Counted from the stretch's first letter, positions 2,890 through 10,866 are shown. The stretch is 35,752 nt of DNA from Candidatus Muiribacterium halophilum (GCA_023228995.1 JALOAD010000034.1:1-35752), one strand, 5' to 3'. Program-made: numbers and translations. The notes: a model not told the origin generated them from the sequence alone.

Positions 2890-3747
2890 ATGGCTCGTGC
2901 AAGAAAAATTGAACAAATCTATGATAAGAATGCAATCTTTGGTACTCTCGACAAATTAGCTCTTTCGAGAAAGGACAACAACATTCTTACTCATTTTGAT
3001 GGCAGACTTATTGCCAATACGCTTGTTACTAACAAGTATGAACTTTTCGACTTTCCTACTTTTGCTAAAGATGTTATTGAAGAAGTTGAAAATTATTTCT
3101 CACCTGAAAAATACAATCTACGTATTACAAAAGGCACCCAAGAACTTCGTCTTATTGGTGAAGAAGTTCTAATCAATGGTGACCGTTACTCCAAAATGTT
3201 TAACATTCTCAACTCAACTGATAAGAGCCGTGCTCTTCAATTGAACGTTGGTCTTATCCGTTTCATCTGTACTAACGGTATGGTAGTTGCTGCAGATAAC
3301 GAATATGCTGGTCTTAAAACAAAACACTTTAAGGCAACACTTCCTGAGAAAGTTCAAACTTTCGTTGAAAGTCTTGATACATTCGAGATGAATATCAACA
3401 AACAATCTGAAACACTTGAAAACCTTACTGGTCGTTTCGTTTCTTTCAGAGAATTAGCTGAAAAAATCGCTATGGACGAAGACGGTGTAATTAAAGACAG
3501 TGGCGCATTGAAATTACGTGCTTTCGCTAAGAAACTTCTTTCTTCCGAAACTGATGCCCTTGTGGATCTTCACTCAGAACAAGAAGCGTTGCTTAGAAAT
3601 GCTAATATGTTCTTAAACCCAGAGTTCAAGAATGTTGATATTGAGATGCCTGCTTACAACGCATTAAACTGTTGGATAGAAGTTTATAGAAACTATGATT
3701 CTTCTGTACTTAAAAGAGAAACTAACAGAATTCTCGAATTAGTATAA
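2890..3747 (+). CDS. hypothetical protein (monocistronic unit with its own promoter and terminator)
   Basis: 285-aa track ORF flanked by a TATATTTG element and a strong hairpin terminator. I cannot place it in a family with confidence. Confidence 0.6.
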   Translation: MARARKIEQIYDKNAIFGTLDKLALSRKDNNILTHFDGRLIANTLVTNKYELFDFPTFAKDVIEEVENYFSPEKYNLRITKGTQELRLIGEEVLINGDRYSKMFNILNSTDKSRALQLNVGLIRFICTNGMVVAADNEYAGLKTKHFKATLPEKVQTFVESLDTFEMNINKQSETLENLTGRFVSFRELAEKIAMDEDGVIKDSGALKLRAFAKKLLSSETDALVDLHSEQEALLRNANMFLNPEFKNVDIEMPAYNALNCWIEVYRNYDSSVLKRETNRILELV

Positions 3748-3754
3748 ACTTATT

Positions 3755-3790
3755 GGTGGTCGTATGTTATGCGACCACCTTATTTATTAA
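3755..3790 (+). terminator. Rho-independent terminator
   Basis: GGTGGTCG/CGACCACC 8-bp GC-rich stem (3755-3762/3772-3779) with a 9-nt loop, then TTATTTATT. Confidence 0.65.
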
Positions 3791-3811
3791 CCTTATAAAA
3801 AATACAAAATT

Positions 3812-3979
3812 ATGTTGAATCCTATTGGAATGACTGTATTCTTCTTACTACTTGTTGTGGTATTAGTTTTTTGGATGTATAAGAGTTCTAAAGATGGTAA
3901 AAAAGATTTACTTGACGAACTTTGGAAGAACGAAGAAATCAGTGATGATACGTACAAAAAGTACATGGACAAATTTTAA
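3812..3979 (+). CDS. small membrane protein with SHOCT-like C-terminus (55 aa)
   Basis: ATG at 3812 and TAA at 3977-3979. The N-terminal TM segment is MTVFFLLLVVVLVFWMY. The tail LLDELWKNEEISDDTYKKYMDKF resembles the SHOCT short C-terminal domain. The ORF is below the track's length cutoff. Confidence 0.4.
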   Translation: MLNPIGMTVFFLLLVVVLVFWMYKSSKDGKKDLLDELWKNEEISDDTYKKYMDKF

Positions 3980-4035
3980 ATATTTATTTACAAACAATTT
4001 ATTTACAAACTTTTATTTATTAATTAACAAATTTT

Positions 4036-4390
4036 ATGAATTTTATGAAAAATTTAACTCGTAGTCAAAAAAGACTTTTAAAATTAGGTGGAACTGTATT
4101 AGCAGGTGTAATCTTATTAGTAATTATCCTTTCGACTTGTTTGGTGACAATCGAACCAGGTGAAAAAGGAGTATTATTCTACAAATGGGGCGATGGTCTC
4201 GACAAAGAAACAGTTTATGATGAAGGTGTTCATTTCGTGTCTCCTTGGAACACAATGATTATTTATGATGTTCGTTAAGCACGGAAGAGAATTTGAACAT
4301 TTAGACACAAATGGTTGTGAGTTGGATGTTACTAATGTTGATGATAAACACTTGCCTTTTTATGAGTGGTTTGCAAAGTATTACACATAA
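4036..4390 (+). pseudogene. SPFH/band-7 (HflK/C-, stomatin-like) family gene, N-terminal fragment
   Basis: Track ORF 4036..4278 carries an N-terminal TM helix plus IEPGEKGVLFYKWGDGLDKETVYDEGVHFVSPWNTMIIYDVR, a canonical SPFH domain start. It stops at 4276-4278. A +1 frame continues REFEHLDTNGCELDVTNVDD...FAKYYT to about 4390, still SPFH-like, so the gene is frameshifted and then broken. Confidence 0.6.
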
Positions 4391-4496
4391 CAGACAGCAA
4401 TATGAAACGTGCGGAATTTAGCATTGCCCTTACCACGAAGCACAAAAAAACAAAACAATTTTTAGGGCGGGATTTTAAAACTTAAATTTTATAGAT

Positions 4497-5096
4497 ATGA
4501 CAAACTCAAAATTACATGCGAAACGAGAGCTGGAGTTACTCGAAAAAACAACTCCTGATGCAATAATTACACCATTCAAAAACGAAATACTTGCTTTATG
4601 CGAGGCGTTTGGTAAAAGTGGTCAAAGTGGTGGTTCTGCACCATTTACGGCAACAGCGATATCTCAGGCAGTAAAAAAGCTAATGATGTTTGAAACACTT
4701 GCTCCATTGACTGGTGAAGATAGTGAATGGGAAGATATAAGTGAATACAGTAACGGAGAATCAATATTTCAGAATAATCGTGATAGTCGTGTTTTTAAAA
4801 ATGGTAAAGACGGACAAGCATATTTCATTGAAGCTATTGTTTTTGATGGAGATATTGGTGGAAGATTTACCGGAAACGGAAGTGTAACTCATAATGGAGA
4901 GAATATTAGCAGTAGCCAATATATTAAAGAGTTTCCGTTTATTCCAAAAACATTTTACGTTGATGTGATTGACCACAGATGGGTAGATAAAGAAGAAAAA
5001 ACACCTGATGAAAACGGTGACTGGTGGACGCATTCAATTAAAGACGAAAATCAATTGAATGAAGTATTTGAGTACTATGATAAATTGACTTCTTAA
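4497..5096 (+). CDS. hypothetical protein
   Basis: 199-aa track ORF with no recognised motif. Confidence 0.5.
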   Translation: MTNSKLHAKRELELLEKTTPDAIITPFKNEILALCEAFGKSGQSGGSAPFTATAISQAVKKLMMFETLAPLTGEDSEWEDISEYSNGESIFQNNRDSRVFKNGKDGQAYFIEAIVFDGDIGGRFTGNGSVTHNGENISSSQYIKEFPFIPKTFYVDVIDHRWVDKEEKTPDENGDWWTHSIKDENQLNEVFEYYDKLTS

Positions 5097-5186
5097 ATGT
5101 GCGTGAGGAAAATTGTTTTGTTTTTCTCTTTCGGATTAGCACAGACCTTGAAACGAAGCACAGCACTAAGCATGTTTTATATTGCA

Positions 5187-5217
5187 TGTTGTGCAATCGT
5201 TTTAATGTTGCACAACA
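5187..5217. repeat. perfect 10-bp inverted repeat TGTTGTGCAA-N11-TTGCACAACA
   Basis: Read directly from the sequence. It lies in the intergenic region upstream of the ATG at 5262. It could be an operator or a hairpin. Confidence 0.5.
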
Positions 5218-5290
5218 TAGCATTTACGAATGTTTTAATTAAAAAAAACAAAAAACAAGATATGAATAAAATATTTAATGACAATGCAAT
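5218..5290. repeat. direct repeat copy 1 (~73 bp) covering an upstream region plus the first 10 codons MNKIFNDNAI
   Basis: Near-identical to 5972-6043. The only difference is a 1-nt length change in an A-run. Confidence 0.7.
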
Positions 5291-5447
5291 CAAAGTTAAT
5301 GAACTTGAAAAGAGAGTTATAAAACTTGAAAAATTAGTTGCTCAATTAGTAGCAATAGAAACTAATAAACAACGTGAATTTGAAGCCTACGAAGAATTTG
5401 AAAGGCTTAGAGATGAGGCAAGTTCTCAAATAGGACACGACATGTAG
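5262..5447 (+). CDS. small coiled-coil protein (61 aa)
   Basis: ATG at 5262, in frame with track ORF 5097..5447. The heptad-like segment VNELEKRVIKLEKLVAQLVAIE suggests a coiled coil. The N-terminal 10 aa are identical to those of the methyltransferase at 6015. Confidence 0.45.
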   Translation: MNKIFNDNAIKVNELEKRVIKLEKLVAQLVAIETNKQREFEAYEEFERLRDEASSQIGHDM

Positions 5448-5471
5448 CACTTGCCACTAAAGATTGAAATT

Positions 5472-5957
5472 ATGAAAAATTTAGAAAACAAAGAAATACT
5501 TTCAGATAATATTTTAAACGCAATTTCGCTGATTATAAAACAAACACCAACTGCCGTTTTTGGCGGTTCAATTGCCTTAAATGCTGTTGGATTAATCAAT
5601 AGACCTATTTCTGATATTGATTTGTTTTTTGGAATGAATGAAAGTTTATCTAAAAATGGATATTTATCGATTAGAACTATGGGTGAAATAACTTCCGATA
5701 CGGTTACTAATACAAATGGAATTGAAATACAAAGAACTGGGGCTAAAATCGCAGGGGTAAAAACCTGTTGTTTTAAAGTACCTGATGAAGAATTGCAATG
5801 CTCAAAACATAAATTTGAAAGGAATGGAATAGAATTTACCATTTATATTCAAAATGTGAATTACGCAATTGAGGCGAAAAAATCTTATTCAAGTCGAAAC
5901 CCAAAACACAAAACAGATTTGGAAACTATCTCGAATGTGTTGGACAGTCTTTTTTAA
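5472..5957 (+). CDS. minimal nucleotidyltransferase (pol-beta superfamily NTase fold)
   Basis: VFGGSIALNAVGLINRPISDIDLFF fits the h-G-[GS]-x(9-13)-D-h-D-h NTase signature. ATG at 5472 is in frame with track ORF 5451..5957, whose own start is a TTG. Confidence 0.55.
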   Translation: MKNLENKEILSDNILNAISLIIKQTPTAVFGGSIALNAVGLINRPISDIDLFFGMNESLSKNGYLSIRTMGEITSDTVTNTNGIEIQRTGAKIAGVKTCCFKVPDEELQCSKHKFERNGIEFTIYIQNVNYAIEAKKSYSSRNPKHKTDLETISNVLDSLF

Positions 5958-5971
5958 GGCTGTGCATAACC

Positions 5972-6043
5972 TAGCATTTACGAATGTTTTAATTAAAAAA
6001 ACAAAAAACAAGATATGAATAAAATATTTAATGACAATGCAAT
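5972..6043. repeat. direct repeat copy 2 (~72 bp)
   Basis: Near-identical to 5218-5290. It includes the start codon of the methyltransferase gene at 6015. Confidence 0.7.
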
Positions 6044-6704
6044 AGCAATTATGGATAGAATGATTGCAAAAGATTACAAAGTGGACTTAGTTGTAACAGA
6101 CCCACCATATCCTACAACATCAAGAGGTTGTGCAGGTAATAGCGGTGGGATGCTACAAAAAGACATTAACAAAAAAGGTAAAGTATTTGAAAACAATGAT
6201 ATTCACGTAAAAGTTTGGGGAGAAAAACTATATCAAATATTAAAAGAAACAGGACATTGTTACATTATGACTAATCATAAAAACTTGCAAGAGTATCTGA
6301 ATGTTTTAACAGACATAGGTTTTCACTTCATAAAAAGTTTAATTTGGGATAAAGGAAATAAAATAATGGGGCAATATTATATGAGCCAATTTGAGTATAT
6401 TTTATTTTTTAGAAAAGGTGCTGGAGTGAAAATAAATAATTGTGGAACTGCTGATATACTTTCAATACCAAATAAAAAAACAAAAGACAATGAAGGTAAA
6501 AATATCCACGATACAGAAAAACCTATTGAGTTAATGAGAATACTTATTGAAAATTCATCAAAAGAAAACGAAATAGTATTTGAACCATTTATGGGTGTAG
6601 GTGCTACTTGTATAGCAAGTTTATTATCAAACAGGCAATACATAGGAGTAGAACTTGATGAAAATTATTTTAAAATTGCAGAAGAACGTATTAAAAAAGC
6701 ATGA
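6015..6704 (+). CDS. DNA methyltransferase, beta-class N4/N6 (PF01555-like)
   Basis: Motif IV VVTDPPY is N-terminal, and motif I EPFMGVGAT...YIGVELDENYF is C-terminal. That order is the beta-class arrangement. Confidence 0.8.
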   Translation: MNKIFNDNAIAIMDRMIAKDYKVDLVVTDPPYPTTSRGCAGNSGGMLQKDINKKGKVFENNDIHVKVWGEKLYQILKETGHCYIMTNHKNLQEYLNVLTDIGFHFIKSLIWDKGNKIMGQYYMSQFEYILFFRKGAGVKINNCGTADILSIPNKKTKDNEGKNIHDTEKPIELMRILIENSSKENEIVFEPFMGVGATCIASLLSNRQYIGVELDENYFKIAEERIKKA

Positions 6705-6770
6705 AAAGAAAAAGATTTAAAATCAATGACTCTGTTTGGTGAAGAAATAAAAATAATTAAATAATAAAAT

Positions 6771-7483
6771 ATGAATTTAATAAATGGAGAAGCAGTAGAA
6801 CAATTAAAATTGATACCCGACAAAAGTGTTGATTTTGTATGTATTGATCCACCTTATGAATTAGATAATCACGGTGGTGGAAAGACTGATTTTGCACAAC
6901 GGAAATTAGTAAAGGACTTGCATATTGATTTTATAAGCAATGGTTTTGAAATGGAAAAAGTATTTACTGAAATTGAAAGAATAAGTAAAACTATGAATAT
7001 GATTTGTTTTTGTTCAAATAAGCAAGTTTCTAAAATTATGAATTATTGGGAACAAAAAAGTATTCAGTTACTTTATTGGTGTGGCAAAAATCAAATCCTG
7101 TACCCTTTGGTAATGGTAAATATATTTCTGATTTAGAATTTATGATTTATGTAAGAGGCAAAAAAGCTATATACAATAATACAGGTTATAAAAATCAACT
7201 TAAAGTATTTAACTATCCAGCACCAAGTTCAAAAACAAGAATACACCCAACTGAAAAACCTATTGAATTATTAAAAAGATTAATTGAAATACATTCAAAT
7301 AAAGGTAGTGTTGTTTTAGATTGTTATGGCGGTAGTTTTTCAACGGGGTTAGCTTGCATAGAATTAGGACGTGAATTTATAGGGATAGAAATTGATGAAG
7401 AAATTTTTAATTCAGCAAAAAAGAGGATGGAAGAAAAAATAAAAGAAAAAGATTTACAAGCAGGAACTCTATTTAACTTGTAA
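6771..7483 (+). pseudogene. DNA methyltransferase, beta-class N4/N6, interrupted by a frameshift in an A6 run (~7054-7059)
   Basis: Track ORFs 6771..7136 (VCIDPPYEL) and 7046..7483 (TLLVWQKSN..., motif I GGSFSTGLACIELGREFIGIEID) are two halves of one gene. Alignment to the 6015 paralog places the shift in the run aacAAAAAAg. Confidence 0.65.
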
Positions 7484-7495
7484 GTAAGAAACAAA

Positions 7496-7636
7496 ATGAG
7501 TAAAGAAAACAAAACTTTAGATAAGCAGAAAAACAGCAATGAAACAAGTACTTTCATTATTGCACCAAACGTTCGTCCCTTAGTATTGGTACTAACATCG
7601 ACATATCGTAAAACCACCCGCCAGAAGGCGGGGTAA
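7496..7636 (+). CDS. possible small ORF (46 aa)
   Basis: ATG at 7496. The ORF ends inside the GC hairpin at 7617-7632. Support is weak. Confidence 0.25.
   Translation: MSKENKTLDKQKNSNETSTFIIAPNVRPLVLVLTSTYRKTTRQKAG
7617..7632. other. GC-rich hairpin CCCGCC-agaa-GGCGGG
   Basis: A 6-bp all-GC stem is conspicuous in an AT-rich background. The + strand tail is A-rich and the - strand tail is UGGUUUUAC. It may act as a terminator or RNA stability element after the methyltransferase cluster. Confidence 0.35.
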
Positions 7637-7647
7637 AACAAAACAAC

Positions 7648-7914
7648 ATGAATATATATTTTGGTAATGTAACATTTAACAAGGTTTTAGAAGAAACTGG
7701 ATACAAACTTACAGAAGAAGATAAAAAGCTATGGGATAAATACCATAGTGATAAGGCTGATTTGTCAGAAAAAGAAAGCTGTTTTCATATTTTTAGTATG
7801 CCATTAGAAATACACTTCAAGGGTGATGAAGCAAAAGAAGCCTTATTAAAAATGTTTACCCCTGATAAATGTGTAGAGGCTAAAGGATACTTTAACGTTA
7901 TTAGGAAGGAGTAA
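7648..7914 (+). CDS. hypothetical protein
   Basis: 88-aa track ORF. Confidence 0.5.
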   Translation: MNIYFGNVTFNKVLEETGYKLTEEDKKLWDKYHSDKADLSEKESCFHIFSMPLEIHFKGDEAKEALLKMFTPDKCVEAKGYFNVIRKE

Positions 7915-8136
7915 AGTAGTATTACACACAACAACGGACGAGTGTATGGAAAGTAAGCCATGCACAACTTAAAAACGTTCAGGAATATTTCAGAGGGCTT
8001 ATTGATACAAGTGATATAGATGAATTAGTTGGAGATCCTAATGATGATGAGAGTGGTACAATTGGTGGTTTTACAAAGAAAACAAGAAATTTAGAAGGTG
8101 TTGAAGATAAGATTTCAAATAAAAAATAAACATTTT

Positions 8137-8675
8137 ATGATTGGACACTTACATGGTGATGTCGGTAAAGATATAAAAATATTATCGTTATACCATATCC
8201 AAGAAACGTAGTAAGAGAAGTAACAGGTCAATTTACTGCAGAAGAATTATATTCTACTAAACGTGACCAACTTCAATCTCAATGTGAAGAAATGTTAATG
8301 GAGAAATTCAAGGATAAAAACATCATTCTATTAGATGTACTTATTCGTGACGTAAATCTTCCTAAGAAAATTAAAGATGGTATTGAAGCAAAAGAGTCTC
8401 AGAAACAAAAGAACGAACTTGCTGAAAAAATCAATGCTGAAAAAGAATTCCTTGCTAAAGCAGCTATTACAGAAGCAGAAGGTATCAAACAATCTAATAT
8501 TCTTGTTGCTCAAGGTGAAGCTGAAGCAATTAAGTTGAAACAACAACAACTTAGACAATCACCACAATATATTGAATATATTAAGTGGCAAGGTTACGCT
8601 TCAAGTGGCAAATCACCATACGGAGATAATAACGTATTCGGTGGAAATACTTCAGTAATCAAAGGATTGAAGTAA
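8137..8675 (+). pseudogene. SPFH/band-7 family gene, C-terminal fragment
   Basis: Track ORF 8292..8675 contains ILLDVLIRDVNLPKKIKDGIEAKESQKQ...AEGIKQSNILVAQGEAEAIK, a canonical SPFH C-terminal region. The same frame is open from 8169 (NIIVIPYPRNVVREVTGQFTAEELYSTKRDQL). A further SPFH-like stretch lies in another frame from 8137, so a second frameshift is present. The fragment complements the N-terminal piece at 4036. Confidence 0.6.
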
Positions 8676-8688
8676 TAAAACTTAATAA

Positions 8689-8717
8689 GGTGTGGTGTGA
8701 AAGCCACACTTTATTCT
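8689..8717 (+). terminator. Rho-independent terminator
   Basis: GTGTGG/CCACAC stem with a short loop, then TTTATTCT, directly after the TAA at 8673-8675. Confidence 0.5.
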
Positions 8718-8746
8718 AATCATTTAATCATTAATAAAATATAATT

Positions 8747-9058
8747 ATGAAAAACTTTTACAAAAGAAACAGAAGAATTATTGGAATCGGAATCTTAGTT
8801 GTTATAACAATGTTATTTATGACAAGTTGTGCAGATGTTACAAACATTGATGAATGTAGAGTAGATGACCCTTACGGTTTTTGGGGTGGTTTGTGGCATG
8901 GTTTAATTGCATTCTTTTCATTTTTCGGATCATTGTTTTCAGATGATATTGCTGTATATGCAGTAAATAATAATGGTGCATGGTACGATTTTGGTTTCGT
9001 ATTAGGTTCAGGAATTCTTGGTTTTGGTGCAAGTTCAAGCACTCGAAAAAGAAATTAA
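8747..9058 (+). CDS. small membrane or lipoprotein-like protein
   Basis: The N-terminus has a basic region, a hydrophobic region, and a lipobox-like MTSC. Gly-rich hydrophobic segments follow. Confidence 0.5.
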   Translation: MKNFYKRNRRIIGIGILVVITMLFMTSCADVTNIDECRVDDPYGFWGGLWHGLIAFFSFFGSLFSDDIAVYAVNNNGAWYDFGFVLGSGILGFGASSSTRKRN

Positions 9059-9219: not shown

Positions 9220-9861
9220 ATGCCTTATTGTCTTATTAAAAATATCAAAACATCAATTTTTATGAATCACTTTGAAAAAAAATTCGAGCAAAAAACGGGA
9301 TTAAATTTCCAAGTGTTCTACAAAGAACACAAACCAAAACTTACTTGGTATTTGTCTAAATGGACAGGAGACTTAGAAGTAGCAGAAGATTTCGCAGATG
9401 AAGCGTTTATTAAAGCATTAACATCAATAGATGGTTACAATGTTGAAAAAGCACAACCACAAACTTGGCTTTATACTATCGCTATTAACTTCGTTAAAAA
9501 AGATTACCAAGACAAACAAAAAATGCCTTCTATCTCTATGGATAGAGAATTGGCTAATGAAGCAACAATGTCTATGTTTCTTCCTTATGATGACGGCAGA
9601 AAACGTCAAGAGAAAGATGCAGAAGATAAGGCTAAAGCTGAGATTGCACGTGATGCTATTTATAGTATGCCTGACAAACATTATAAGTACCGTAGAGTTC
9701 TTATTCTTAGAGAATTGAAAAATTATTCTTATAATGAGATTGCTGATAAGTTAGAATTAAACCTCTCAACAGTTAAGTCACAGATCAAACAAGGTCGTGC
9801 TTTAATTGCTAAAAAGATTGAGAAGAAAATCGCATATATTGACGAACATGGGTTAAAGTAA
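9220..9861 (+). CDS. RNA polymerase sigma factor, sigma-70/ECF family
   Basis: The region-2-like segment is FADEAFIKALTSIDGY...QTWLYTIAINFVKKDY. The region-4 HTH segment is YRRVLILRELKNYSYNEIADKLELNLSTVKSQIKQGRALI. The true start may be the ATG at 9262 (MNHFEKK...). Confidence 0.75.
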   Translation: MPYCLIKNIKTSIFMNHFEKKFEQKTGLNFQVFYKEHKPKLTWYLSKWTGDLEVAEDFADEAFIKALTSIDGYNVEKAQPQTWLYTIAINFVKKDYQDKQKMPSISMDRELANEATMSMFLPYDDGRKRQEKDAEDKAKAEIARDAIYSMPDKHYKYRRVLILRELKNYSYNEIADKLELNLSTVKSQIKQGRALIAKKIEKKIAYIDEHGLK

Positions 9862-9932: not shown

Positions 9933-10094
9933 ATGAAAGGAAAATGGACTTGGGCAAGCGATAAAGAACATATCAATATTAATACAGGTGTTGGTACTAT
10001 AAAATTTACAAAATCAGATTTTGATAAAATTCAATCAGAACTTTTAAAAAAACAACGAGAAAAGAAAATAAAAAGAATACTCAATGAAGAATAA
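9933..10094 (+). CDS. small protein, member of the C-terminal KL[EK]RIL-tail family (tail KKIKRILNEE)
   Basis: ATG at 9933 is in frame with track ORF 9885..10094, whose GTG start lies inside the terminator. The stop overlaps the next gene's ATG. Confidence 0.5.
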   Translation: MKGKWTWASDKEHININTGVGTIKFTKSDFDKIQSELLKKQREKKIKRILNEE

Positions 10095-10866
10095 AATTTA
10101 TAATGAAGATAATATCAAAACTATGGAGAAAATACCTGACAACCATTGTCATGGTATTATCACAACACCACCATATAACTTAGGTCGAAACCCAAACCAC
10201 AGAAGAAAAGATCAAGAAGATTACAACTTATATGCTGATAATGTTGATAACCTAACAGAAGAAGAATATTTAGAGGTTAGAACAACCGAATTTAAGGAGT
10301 TTCAGAGAATAGTTAAAGATGATGGTGTCATACTATATAATATGTCATACTCAAAAGAAAATCCAATGCTACCATTACTTCTTATGAACAAAATACACAA
10401 TGAAACTGACCTCACAGTAGCCGATGTTATCACCTGGAAAAAGAATAAGGCAAATCCATTCCAAACCTCTCCAAATAAACTTACAAGAATATCAGAACTC
10501 ATATATGTAATTGTTAATAAAAAACATTTACATACGTTCAAAGCTAATAAGGAAATATCTAAAATAAACGAAAAAACAAAACAAAAGTTCTATAAGAATT
10601 ATACTAATCTAATTGAAGCAAGAAATAATGATGGTATTAAATCTAAAAACAAAGCCACATTTTCAATAGATTTAGTTGAACAACTAATACACATTTACTT
10701 TCCACCAAAATCAATAATTTATGATCCATTCATGGGTATTGGTACAACTGCTAAAGGTTGATTGTCTAAAGATTGTTATTTTCTTGGTAGTGAATTGATA
10801 AAAGAATTTTATGAAGAATCAAAAACAAATATAAAAGATTATGTCGGACTGTTGCGCAAATCCTAA
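10084..10866 (+). pseudogene. DNA methyltransferase, beta-class N6/N4, with an in-frame TGA at 10759-10761
   Basis: Motif IV is ITTPPYN and motif I is DPFMGIGTTAKG. The TGA follows, and the same frame continues LSKDCYFLGSELIKEFYEE..., which matches the ...YIGVELDENYF region of the 6015 paralog. The stop aligns with Ser/Cys in the paralogs. Either a nonsense mutation or readthrough would explain it. Confidence 0.6.

Follow-up and report, generated by a model that had tools for sequence, protein, structure and literature searches.

Phages are known to carry morons and hyperplastic accessory regions, a concept which goes back to Hendrix and Juhala, and shuffling of units flanked by promoter-stem-loops is known in the T4-type phages. 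Such moron-like units are thought to move by illegitimate or short-homology recombination. The stretch of 35,752 nucleotides analyzed here (GCA_023228995.1 JALOAD010000034.1:1-35752, called the window in the following text) possesses an SPFH/Band 7 gene which is split by a block of foreign DNA, and this block resembles morons in several features. It is composed of single genes with their own leader and downstream stem-loop, swapped at gene boundaries and situated in an early/accessory region. Like morons, the units contain no mobility genes and are present in some genomes and absent from relatives. Unlike classical morons, which lie between genes, the block has disrupted the coding sequence in which it sits. 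A sigma-70 promoter scan performed no better than on shuffled sequence, and the stem-loop is not repeated across this genome. The case matches known phage biology, with moron-like and counter-defence modules in a plastic early region, and no new kind of system is revealed. The best explanation, in which we have considerable confidence, is that the SPFH gene was split by a patchwork of moron-like modules. The locus gives a clean, independently reproduced snapshot of the evolution of a phage accessory region without mobile-element machinery.

SPFH genes are listed among the non-core open reading frames (ORFs) of T4-like phages (PMC1524935). Like the SPFH/Band 7 (prohibitin/HflKC-like) accessory proteins found in other cultured phages, the copy in the window has an N-terminal transmembrane (TM) helix and a PF01145 domain. 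Unlike them it is a pseudogene, and the closest cultured-phage homologues are less than 30% identical. Two remnants of the gene were identified by Pfam, tblastn, blastn and an SPFH profile, which was built from ten intact proteins and run against 1,700 ORF pieces of the contig. The N-terminal remnant (4036-4275, on the plus strand like all the genes and modules described below) represents codons 1-80. In it a hydrophobic stretch (LLKLGGTVLAGVILLVIILSTCLV) makes up the TM helix, and the beginning of the SPFH domain behind this helix matches Band_7 positions 2-41 in Pfam. It shows 62-77% identity to residues 1-77/80 of the intact proteins P0001-P0004 in tblastn and matches the profile positions 1-80 with an E value of 9.6e-35. 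Its stop codon (TAA, 4276-4278) is contributed by the insert. The C-terminal remnant (8140-8675) corresponds to residues ~110-287 and to the profile positions 104/124-290. The region 8169-8675 is open in frame 0 and matches Band_7 positions 93-175 in Pfam (1.6e-12), and within it 8172-8672 shows 79-88% identity to residues 121-287 of the intact proteins in tblastn, with a profile E value of 3.6e-98. A frame-1 piece (8113-8178) matches profile positions 104-125 with an E value of 0.14, ranking third among the ORF pieces, and in tblastn a frame-1 piece at 8101-8178 aligns to residues ~97-122 of P0001. A 1-nt deletion near 8170 (GATTAT to GATAT), thirty bases inside the C-terminal remnant, moves it from frame 1 to frame 0. 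The longest ATG-started ORF in this remnant is 8292-8675 (127 aa).

Both fragments were placed by the profile and tblastn on a single SPFH/Band 7 member in a colinear and non-overlapping manner; on P0001, window positions 4045-4275 correspond to residues 1-77 and 8172-8672 to residues 121-287. When the fragments were concatenated, the intact 287-291-aa proteins P0001-P0006 covered 99-100% of the query with up to 72% identity. The initial annotation, which was made from the sequence alone, had proposed that the ORFs at 4036 and 8292 are halves of one SPFH gene, and this colinear alignment bears it out. That the two ORFs belong to different, complete protein families is contradicted by the placement of both on one protein. 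A related phage with an uninterrupted gene, which had been suggested as a check, is represented by locus L001, where the SPFH gene stands in the order DUF932 - SPFH - 100-aa gene - ... - sigma factor; for the syntenic relatives the order is given as DUF932 - SPFH - 103-aa gene - sigma factor. The intervening DNA is not present in the syntenic relatives. A complete SPFH domain in one frame was not found in the window, as residues ~78-109 are absent, 3,864 bp lie between the two parts and the 1-nt deletion shifts the frame. The copy in the window is a pseudogene, and neither remnant would be able to make an SPFH domain.

Alignment of the fragments to their intact relatives, another check proposed earlier, located the breakpoints within a few bases at 4275 and 8140. 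The blastn homology to L001 and L002, the latter being the nearest backbone relative with ~77% nucleotide identity, ends at window position 4275 and restarts at 8140/8149. On the right side, the family-invariant residues I110, G111, L113, H114 and G118 match only from 8140 onwards, and the invariant D98, S100 and Y103 are not kept upstream of this position. On the basis of the blastn limits and the pattern of invariant residues, SPFH residues ~78-109 (~96 bp) have been replaced by an insert of 3,864 bp (4276-8139), which corrects the earlier estimate of ~3.7 kb. The resumption of the domain at 8137/8169 with a frameshift near the junction had been given with the right coordinates, the frameshift being the deletion near 8170. 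The supposed SPFH-like continuation up to ~4390 on the left side had to be dropped. The alignment score of 4276-4395 was 15, equal to the null mean (15.7 +/- 2.5, from all 120-nt windows of the contig), the profile gave no match in the continuation frame after 4275, and blastn stops at 4275. A target duplication of ~70 bp at both ends, hinted at by permissive DNA alignments, was also rejected. At the left end it is at chance level with no profile hit; at the right end, upstream of 8140, it is marginal (p ~0.01-0.06) and D98, S100 and Y103 are unmatched. The search for target-site duplications, likewise suggested before, found none at the insert ends; ~96 bp of target DNA were lost instead. From these alignments, the insert is best described as an insertion-deletion.

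As the contig comes from a metagenome-assembled genome and one of the frameshifts lies in an A6 homopolymer, the split might be regarded as an assembly or sequencing artefact, in which the contig is chimeric and the frameshifts are errors. Three other assemblies (ENA ERZ27247346, JGI 3300015214 and ENA ERZ27247376) were found to be 99.99-100% identical to the window across the region. In two of these, of 11 kb each, the left and right junctions are present together with the A6 run and the GATAT deletion, while the third, of 6 kb, stops inside the first methyltransferase (MTase) gene and confirms the left junction alone. Because these three assemblies match and two of them carry both junctions along with the frameshifts, the split is not an assembly artefact. 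The flanks share a syntenic backbone and orientation, and a chimera would have to exit and return within 100 bp; an artefact is extremely improbable.

The window has a GC content of ~29% and contains numerous small ORFs, mostly on one strand; no tRNA genes were detected in it. The scans, PHROG among them, gave phage-type matches to a sigma factor, methyltransferases, a nucleotidyltransferase and metallophosphoesterases. Synteny was observed with the IMG/VR viral contig L008 (84.8 kb) and several metagenome contigs. Because of the small same-strand ORFs, the PHROG hits and the synteny with L008, the window is read as part of a phage genome. Most probably it comes from a low-GC tailed phage which has not been cultured, and covers a segment of its early/accessory region. 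The contig is filed under the 'Candidatus Muirbacterium halophilum' metagenome-assembled genome and is probably mis-binned phage DNA. No close cultured relative was found by megablast against GenBank phages or by comparison with the SPFH proteins of cultured phages.

To trace the origin of the insert, 190 loci were fetched for comparison. Five modules were distinguished, carrying a Tad3 homologue, a minimal nucleotidyltransferase (NTase), two MTases and an 88-aa protein gene. Each of them is 86-93.5% identical to a different contig, and the backbone is ~77% identical to its nearest relatives. None of the 190 loci carries two of the modules together as close homologues. Because each module has its own nearest relative and no locus carries two, the insert is not one cassette but a mosaic, made up of five or more single-gene modules plus orphan fragments. 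Modules were exchanged at gene boundaries, and two of the exchange points lie on the 3' arm of a stem-loop whose last bases are GCAYAAC; downstream stem-loops were seen for the Tad3 and NTase modules. The initial annotation had seen here an accessory cassette inactivating a resident gene; the split and the inactivation stand, and the single cassette gives way to the mosaic. The contents which it listed, namely a 199-aa ORF, a coiled-coil mini-ORF, a minimal NTase, two beta-class MTases (PF01555) and a GC hairpin, were all found. The Tad3 identity of the 199-aa protein, the frameshift in the second MTase gene, the 88-aa gene (7648-7914) and the orphan segments had not been named in it.

The location inside a coding sequence, the start-less gene fragments at both ends and a direct similarity of 25 nt, itself marginal, close to either end might speak for a discrete mobile element, such as a transposon or insertion sequence, a homing-endonuclease cassette or a group I/II intron. 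Scans with Pfam, PHROG and NCBIfam detected no transposase, integrase, HNH, GIY-YIG or LAGLIDADG domain in any ORF of the insert. The Rfam scan of 3700-8800 gave one chance-level match alone and no intron or ribozyme, and together with the domain scans this leaves no sign of an intron or a homing endonuclease. The terminal inverted repeat score at the insert ends was 14, below the null mean of 15.8. Transposase, inverted repeats and target-site duplication, which mark a transposon or insertion sequence, were all absent; ~96 bp were lost, and the modules occur singly elsewhere. A discrete mobile element is very unlikely on this evidence. For the patchwork, the following course can be proposed. 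The ancestor phage would have carried an intact gene for an SPFH/prohibitin-like membrane protein of ~290 aa between the DUF932 and sigma-factor genes. Foreign phage DNA may then have replaced ~96 bp in the middle of this gene with a 3,864-bp patchwork of moron-like modules. The modules would circulate separately among unrelated phages and could be joined by illegitimate or microhomology-mediated recombination of co-infecting phages, and a 91-bp duplication may have created a chimeric 61-aa ORF as a recombination scar, next to which the start-less gene fragments at both ends and a frameshift count as further scars. Joining by illegitimate or short-homology recombination without any mobile-element enzyme is what we infer from these results, and the net role of the block is likely to be counter-defence, as judged from the homologies of its genes.

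The time of the break was approached by the ratio of non-synonymous to synonymous substitution (dN/dS). For the N part, the values between the remnant and the intact relatives are 0.23-0.27, compared with 0.225 between two relatives; for the C part they are 0.088-0.097, compared with 0.092. Neither remnant has lost a family-invariant residue. Since the dN/dS of the remnants equals that of the intact relatives and the invariant residues are kept, the SPFH gene appears to have been under purifying selection for nearly all its history and the break appears to be recent. The same invariant residues and low dN/dS, along with a 5' stub which retains its start codon and upstream region, could mean that the remnants are still functional, the TM stub and a C-terminal coiled-coil fragment being expressed separately. 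The SPFH core, however, lacks ~32 residues, and the extra frameshift leaves a 127-aa ORF with an internal ATG and no evident promoter; sister phages delete or frameshift this gene, and low dN/dS is expected from a recent break too. Functional remnants are quite improbable in this light.

The sister phages show lesions of their own. In L003, L004 and L017, which come from two samples, a 578-bp deletion was observed between AAAC microhomologies (L003 1346-2222 compared with L002 593-1170). It takes the 3' part of the upstream 53-aa TM gene and SPFH residues 1-149 and fuses the 53-aa gene to SPFH residue 150, and the remainder is 99.7-100% identical to L002. In L002 itself (725-1587), one nucleotide is lost at residue 105 (CC to C), which results in ORFs of 124 aa and 182 aa; as the loss was seen on a single contig, both a genuine third lesion and an error of sequencing are conceivable. 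The SPFH residues of L002, L003, L004 and L017 are otherwise 100% identical to the intact P0001. The sister phages seem to have lost the gene independently, which suggests that it is dispensable, and the SPFH gene of this phage group appears to be repeatedly lost in nature. A weaker suggestion is that repeated inactivation is selected because the protein triggers host defence.

The recency of the break favors a pre-assembled block over slow accretion, without proving it. Under a stepwise build-up in place, a small first insertion would have been followed by modules added one by one. The different nearest relative of each module, the lack of any locus with two of them and the nested 91-bp duplication around the NTase, which resembles a separate later event, would agree with such a history. 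The remnants show no excess of non-synonymous change and one extra lesion, which leaves little time for at least five acquisitions and the frameshift of the second MTase gene, with the caveat that the scars may predate arrival under either model. Stepwise build-up is given a minor but real chance, and arrival of the block largely pre-assembled and recently is considered probable.

Several points weigh against the patchwork explanation as a whole. A donor with the same multi-gene block or an empty-site allele of the backbone was not found in the 190 loci, GTDB or IMG/VR, and import in one step is an inference because neither was recovered. Searches of IMG/VR with the exact left-junction 29-mer and with the DUF932 protein, and of GTDB genomes for relatives or donors, gave nothing useful, and the SPFH alignment retrieved known or short contigs alone from JGI metagenomes. 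The type of the junctions, microhomology or other, cannot be read because the orphan ends have no relatives. The timing draws on dN/dS alone, as the nearest backbone relatives are only ~77% identical. The counter-defence roles are predicted by homology, and the NTase and the 88-aa protein fall outside the described anti-defence families. Finally, the 25-nt direct similarity (AGTTGGATGTTACTAATGTTGATGA / AGTTGGAGATCCTAATGATGATGA) at 4320-4344 and 8027-8050, with a marginal empirical p of ~0.01-0.02, could hint at a duplication-generating mechanism.

The first module (4389-5219) is composed of a leader, a 199-aa gene (4497-5096) and a downstream stem-loop (5188-5216). Tad3 is described as a phage protein which binds the Thoeris TIR protein ThsB (PMC13402655, PMC13243611). 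The 199-aa protein matches the Pfam family PF25185 (Tad3) with an E value of 1e-25 and 90.2 bits (cutoff 27), and its residues 3-198 align to residues 2-192 of PDB 9b7d chain B, 'Tad3', with an E value of 1.1e-37. By these matches, it is assigned over its full length as a Tad3 homologue, Tad3 being an inhibitor of Thoeris, and is predicted to block the TIR protein ThsB. The module shows 93% nucleotide identity to L011 1553-2384, and the other genes of L011, a 56-kb phage-like contig, are unrelated. Like the described anti-defence clusters, which combine Thoeris inhibitors (Tad3-Tad8) and orphan MTases, the insert has a Tad3 homologue adjoining two orphan beta-class MTases and small genes. Unlike them, one of its MTases is frameshifted, and the NTase and 88-aa proteins match no PADLOC, Pfam or NCBIfam family. 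The stem-loop at 5188-5216 has a folding free energy (dG) of -19 and a z-score of -4.2. The conserved loop TCGTTTTAATG occurs in this stem-loop and in those at L011 1527-1555 and 2353-2381, beside Tad3 genes, and the stem changes among the three are fully compensatory (GCAA/TTGC, AGCA/TGCT, GCTT/AAGC; dG -14 to -19, z -2.8 to -4.2). The stem-loop, GTTGT....TCGTTTTAATG....ACAAC, was considered as a genome-wide shuffling repeat and rejected, being in single copy in the window. A 17-nt perfect inverted repeat around the Tad3 gene (4446-4462 / 5109-5125) was also set aside as candidate transposon ends. One of its arms belongs to the A-rich, low-complexity leaders which precede many genes here, and the block of homology around Tad3 (4389-5219) ends elsewhere.

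A 91-bp direct repeat flanks the NTase module on both sides, with copy 1 at 5200-5290 and copy 2 at 5952-6043 (91-95% in the repeat search, 93.5% in the megablast self-hit). It contains the hairpin 3' arm, an A-rich leader and the beginning of the first MTase gene (10 codons, MNKIFNDNAI), and in other loci MTase1 homologues have 5' ends which match this stub. In copy 1, the 10 duplicated codons are followed by 51 helical codons in a chimeric 61-aa ORF (5262-5447), which is the coiled-coil mini-gene of the initial list. This ORF has a weak helical-hairpin match alone in Pfam (E 0.011). Gene callers lengthen it into a spurious 116-aa ORF (5097-5447).

The minimal NTase module (5471-5970) contains a gene for a 161-aa protein (5472-5957) and a downstream hairpin-like element ending in GCATAAC. 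The true start of the gene is ATG 5472 and not TTG 5451. The module shares 89% identity with L027/L028 and 85% with L029/L030, where it occurs in different contexts. At least 187 members of the 161-aa protein family were found on metagenomic contigs, without any Pfam domain, and the examined ones look phage-like. In the family, the GGS and DID motifs are invariant and a third aspartate is near-invariant. The AlphaFold model of the protein has a predicted local distance difference test (pLDDT) score of 93. The hG[GS] ... [DE]x[DE] motif, the third carboxylate and the NTase fold of the pol-beta superfamily are all present. By motifs and modelled fold, the protein is assigned as a minimal NTase outside the described families; its best Pfam match is AbiEii with an E value of 0.25 and 11.6 bits (cutoff 22.5), PHROG, NCBIfam and PADLOC gave no hits, and nothing useful was found among GenBank phages. 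Compared with the described minimal NTases (TM1012-like, ANT(2'')/LnuA, MenT/AbiEii), it stays below the family thresholds and has no adjacent antitoxin or HEPN partner, and the gene here is phage-borne and travels alone. Its position in the window is between the Tad3 homologue and the orphan MTases, and elsewhere it is found as a single-gene module. By association, this uncharacterised family of NTases is a candidate for counter-defence, and so is the 88-aa protein. There is a rather small chance that the NTase represents a new phage counter-defence enzyme, which might nucleotidylate a host defence protein, a signal or a tRNA, or might mimic the MNT antitoxin against HEPN/AbiE-type toxins. 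The arrangement of loci suggests that the NTase and MTase gene types habitually co-locate. In other phage contigs (L029 5419-9750; L050-L052 4354-5681), the NTase gene is directly followed by another N6/N4 MTase gene, and tandem pairs or triplets of PF01555 MTases recur. A hairpin like that of Tad3, ending in GCATAAC, stands 3' of the NTase gene here and in L027/L029.

The MTase1 module (5991-6713) contains an intact gene (6015-6704, 229 aa) for a beta-class N6/N4 DNA MTase without a restriction partner. The DPPY motif is N-terminal (VVTDPPY) and FxGxG is near the C-terminus (FMGVGAT). The protein matches PF01555 (4.7e-34), phrog_67 (5.5e-52) and the PADLOC MTase_II model (2.3e-45), and the module shows 87-89% nucleotide identity to L034/L035. 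The MTase2 module (6749-7483) also has a beta-class N6/N4 gene (6771-7483), in which a poly-A run is shorter by one nucleotide (A7 to A6 at 7054-7059), so that the gene falls into two ORFs (6771-7136 and 7046-7483). All the 11 related loci aligned across this run have one extra base. The C-terminal part matches PF01555 (9.7e-26), and MTase2 carries the motifs CIDPPY...CYGGSFS; both MTases match PF01555 and have motif IV (DPPY) ahead of motif I (FxGxG), which is the beta-class order. Homology of MTase2 to its relatives stops at 7473, with 93.5% identity of 6749-7473 to L114, and the repaired protein is 92% identical to the product of the unbroken gene in L114. MTase2 is predicted to be inactivated by the frameshift, and MTases of this kind are predicted to protect against restriction.

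The spacer behind MTase2 (7484-7638) contains a GC hairpin (7617-7632, CCCGCC-AGAA-GGCGGG; no strand assigned) with a dG of -13.2 and a z-score of -3.7, and no U-run follows it on the plus strand. The last module (7639-7932) contains the 88-aa gene (7648-7914), which shows 84-90% amino-acid and 81-86% nucleotide identity to L031-L033, with 86% for L031/L033. Pfam, NCBIfam and PADLOC assign no family to the protein, giving a sub-threshold DUF7829 match alone, and PDB contains no relative. The idea that 7648-7914 and 7920-8129 form one frameshifted gene was rejected, as the homology to L031/L033 ends at 7932 and the joined protein gains no Pfam score. Both ends of the insert are orphan segments. 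The left one (4276-4388, 113 bp) has a start-less frame of 37 codons ending with TAA at 4388-4390. The right one (7933-8139, 207 bp) has a frame of 69 codons (7920-8129) in which no ATG, GTG or TTG start is present. The comparison loci contain no relative of the left segment, and no detectable relatives were found for 4276-4388, 5291-5470, 7474-7638 (with the GC hairpin inside) and 7933-8139. For the 69-aa fragment, IMG/VR viral contigs gave no relatives and a library of 1.84 billion proteins gave giant repeat-protein noise alone. The start-less end frames resemble 3' parts left over from disrupted genes.

A third PF01555 MTase of 225 aa is encoded in the backbone of the window at 10084-10761, with a sigma factor (sigma-70 regions 2 and 4) just upstream at 9220-9861. 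Because the backbone holds this third MTase, the phage owned at least one orphan MTase before the two of the insert. A larger nucleotidyltransferase (72-1049, 325 aa; phrog_388, 3e-37) is situated at the left end of the contig and is unrelated to the 161-aa minimal NTase. Many genes of the window are preceded by A-rich leaders (AAAACAAAAC) without Shine-Dalgarno sequences.

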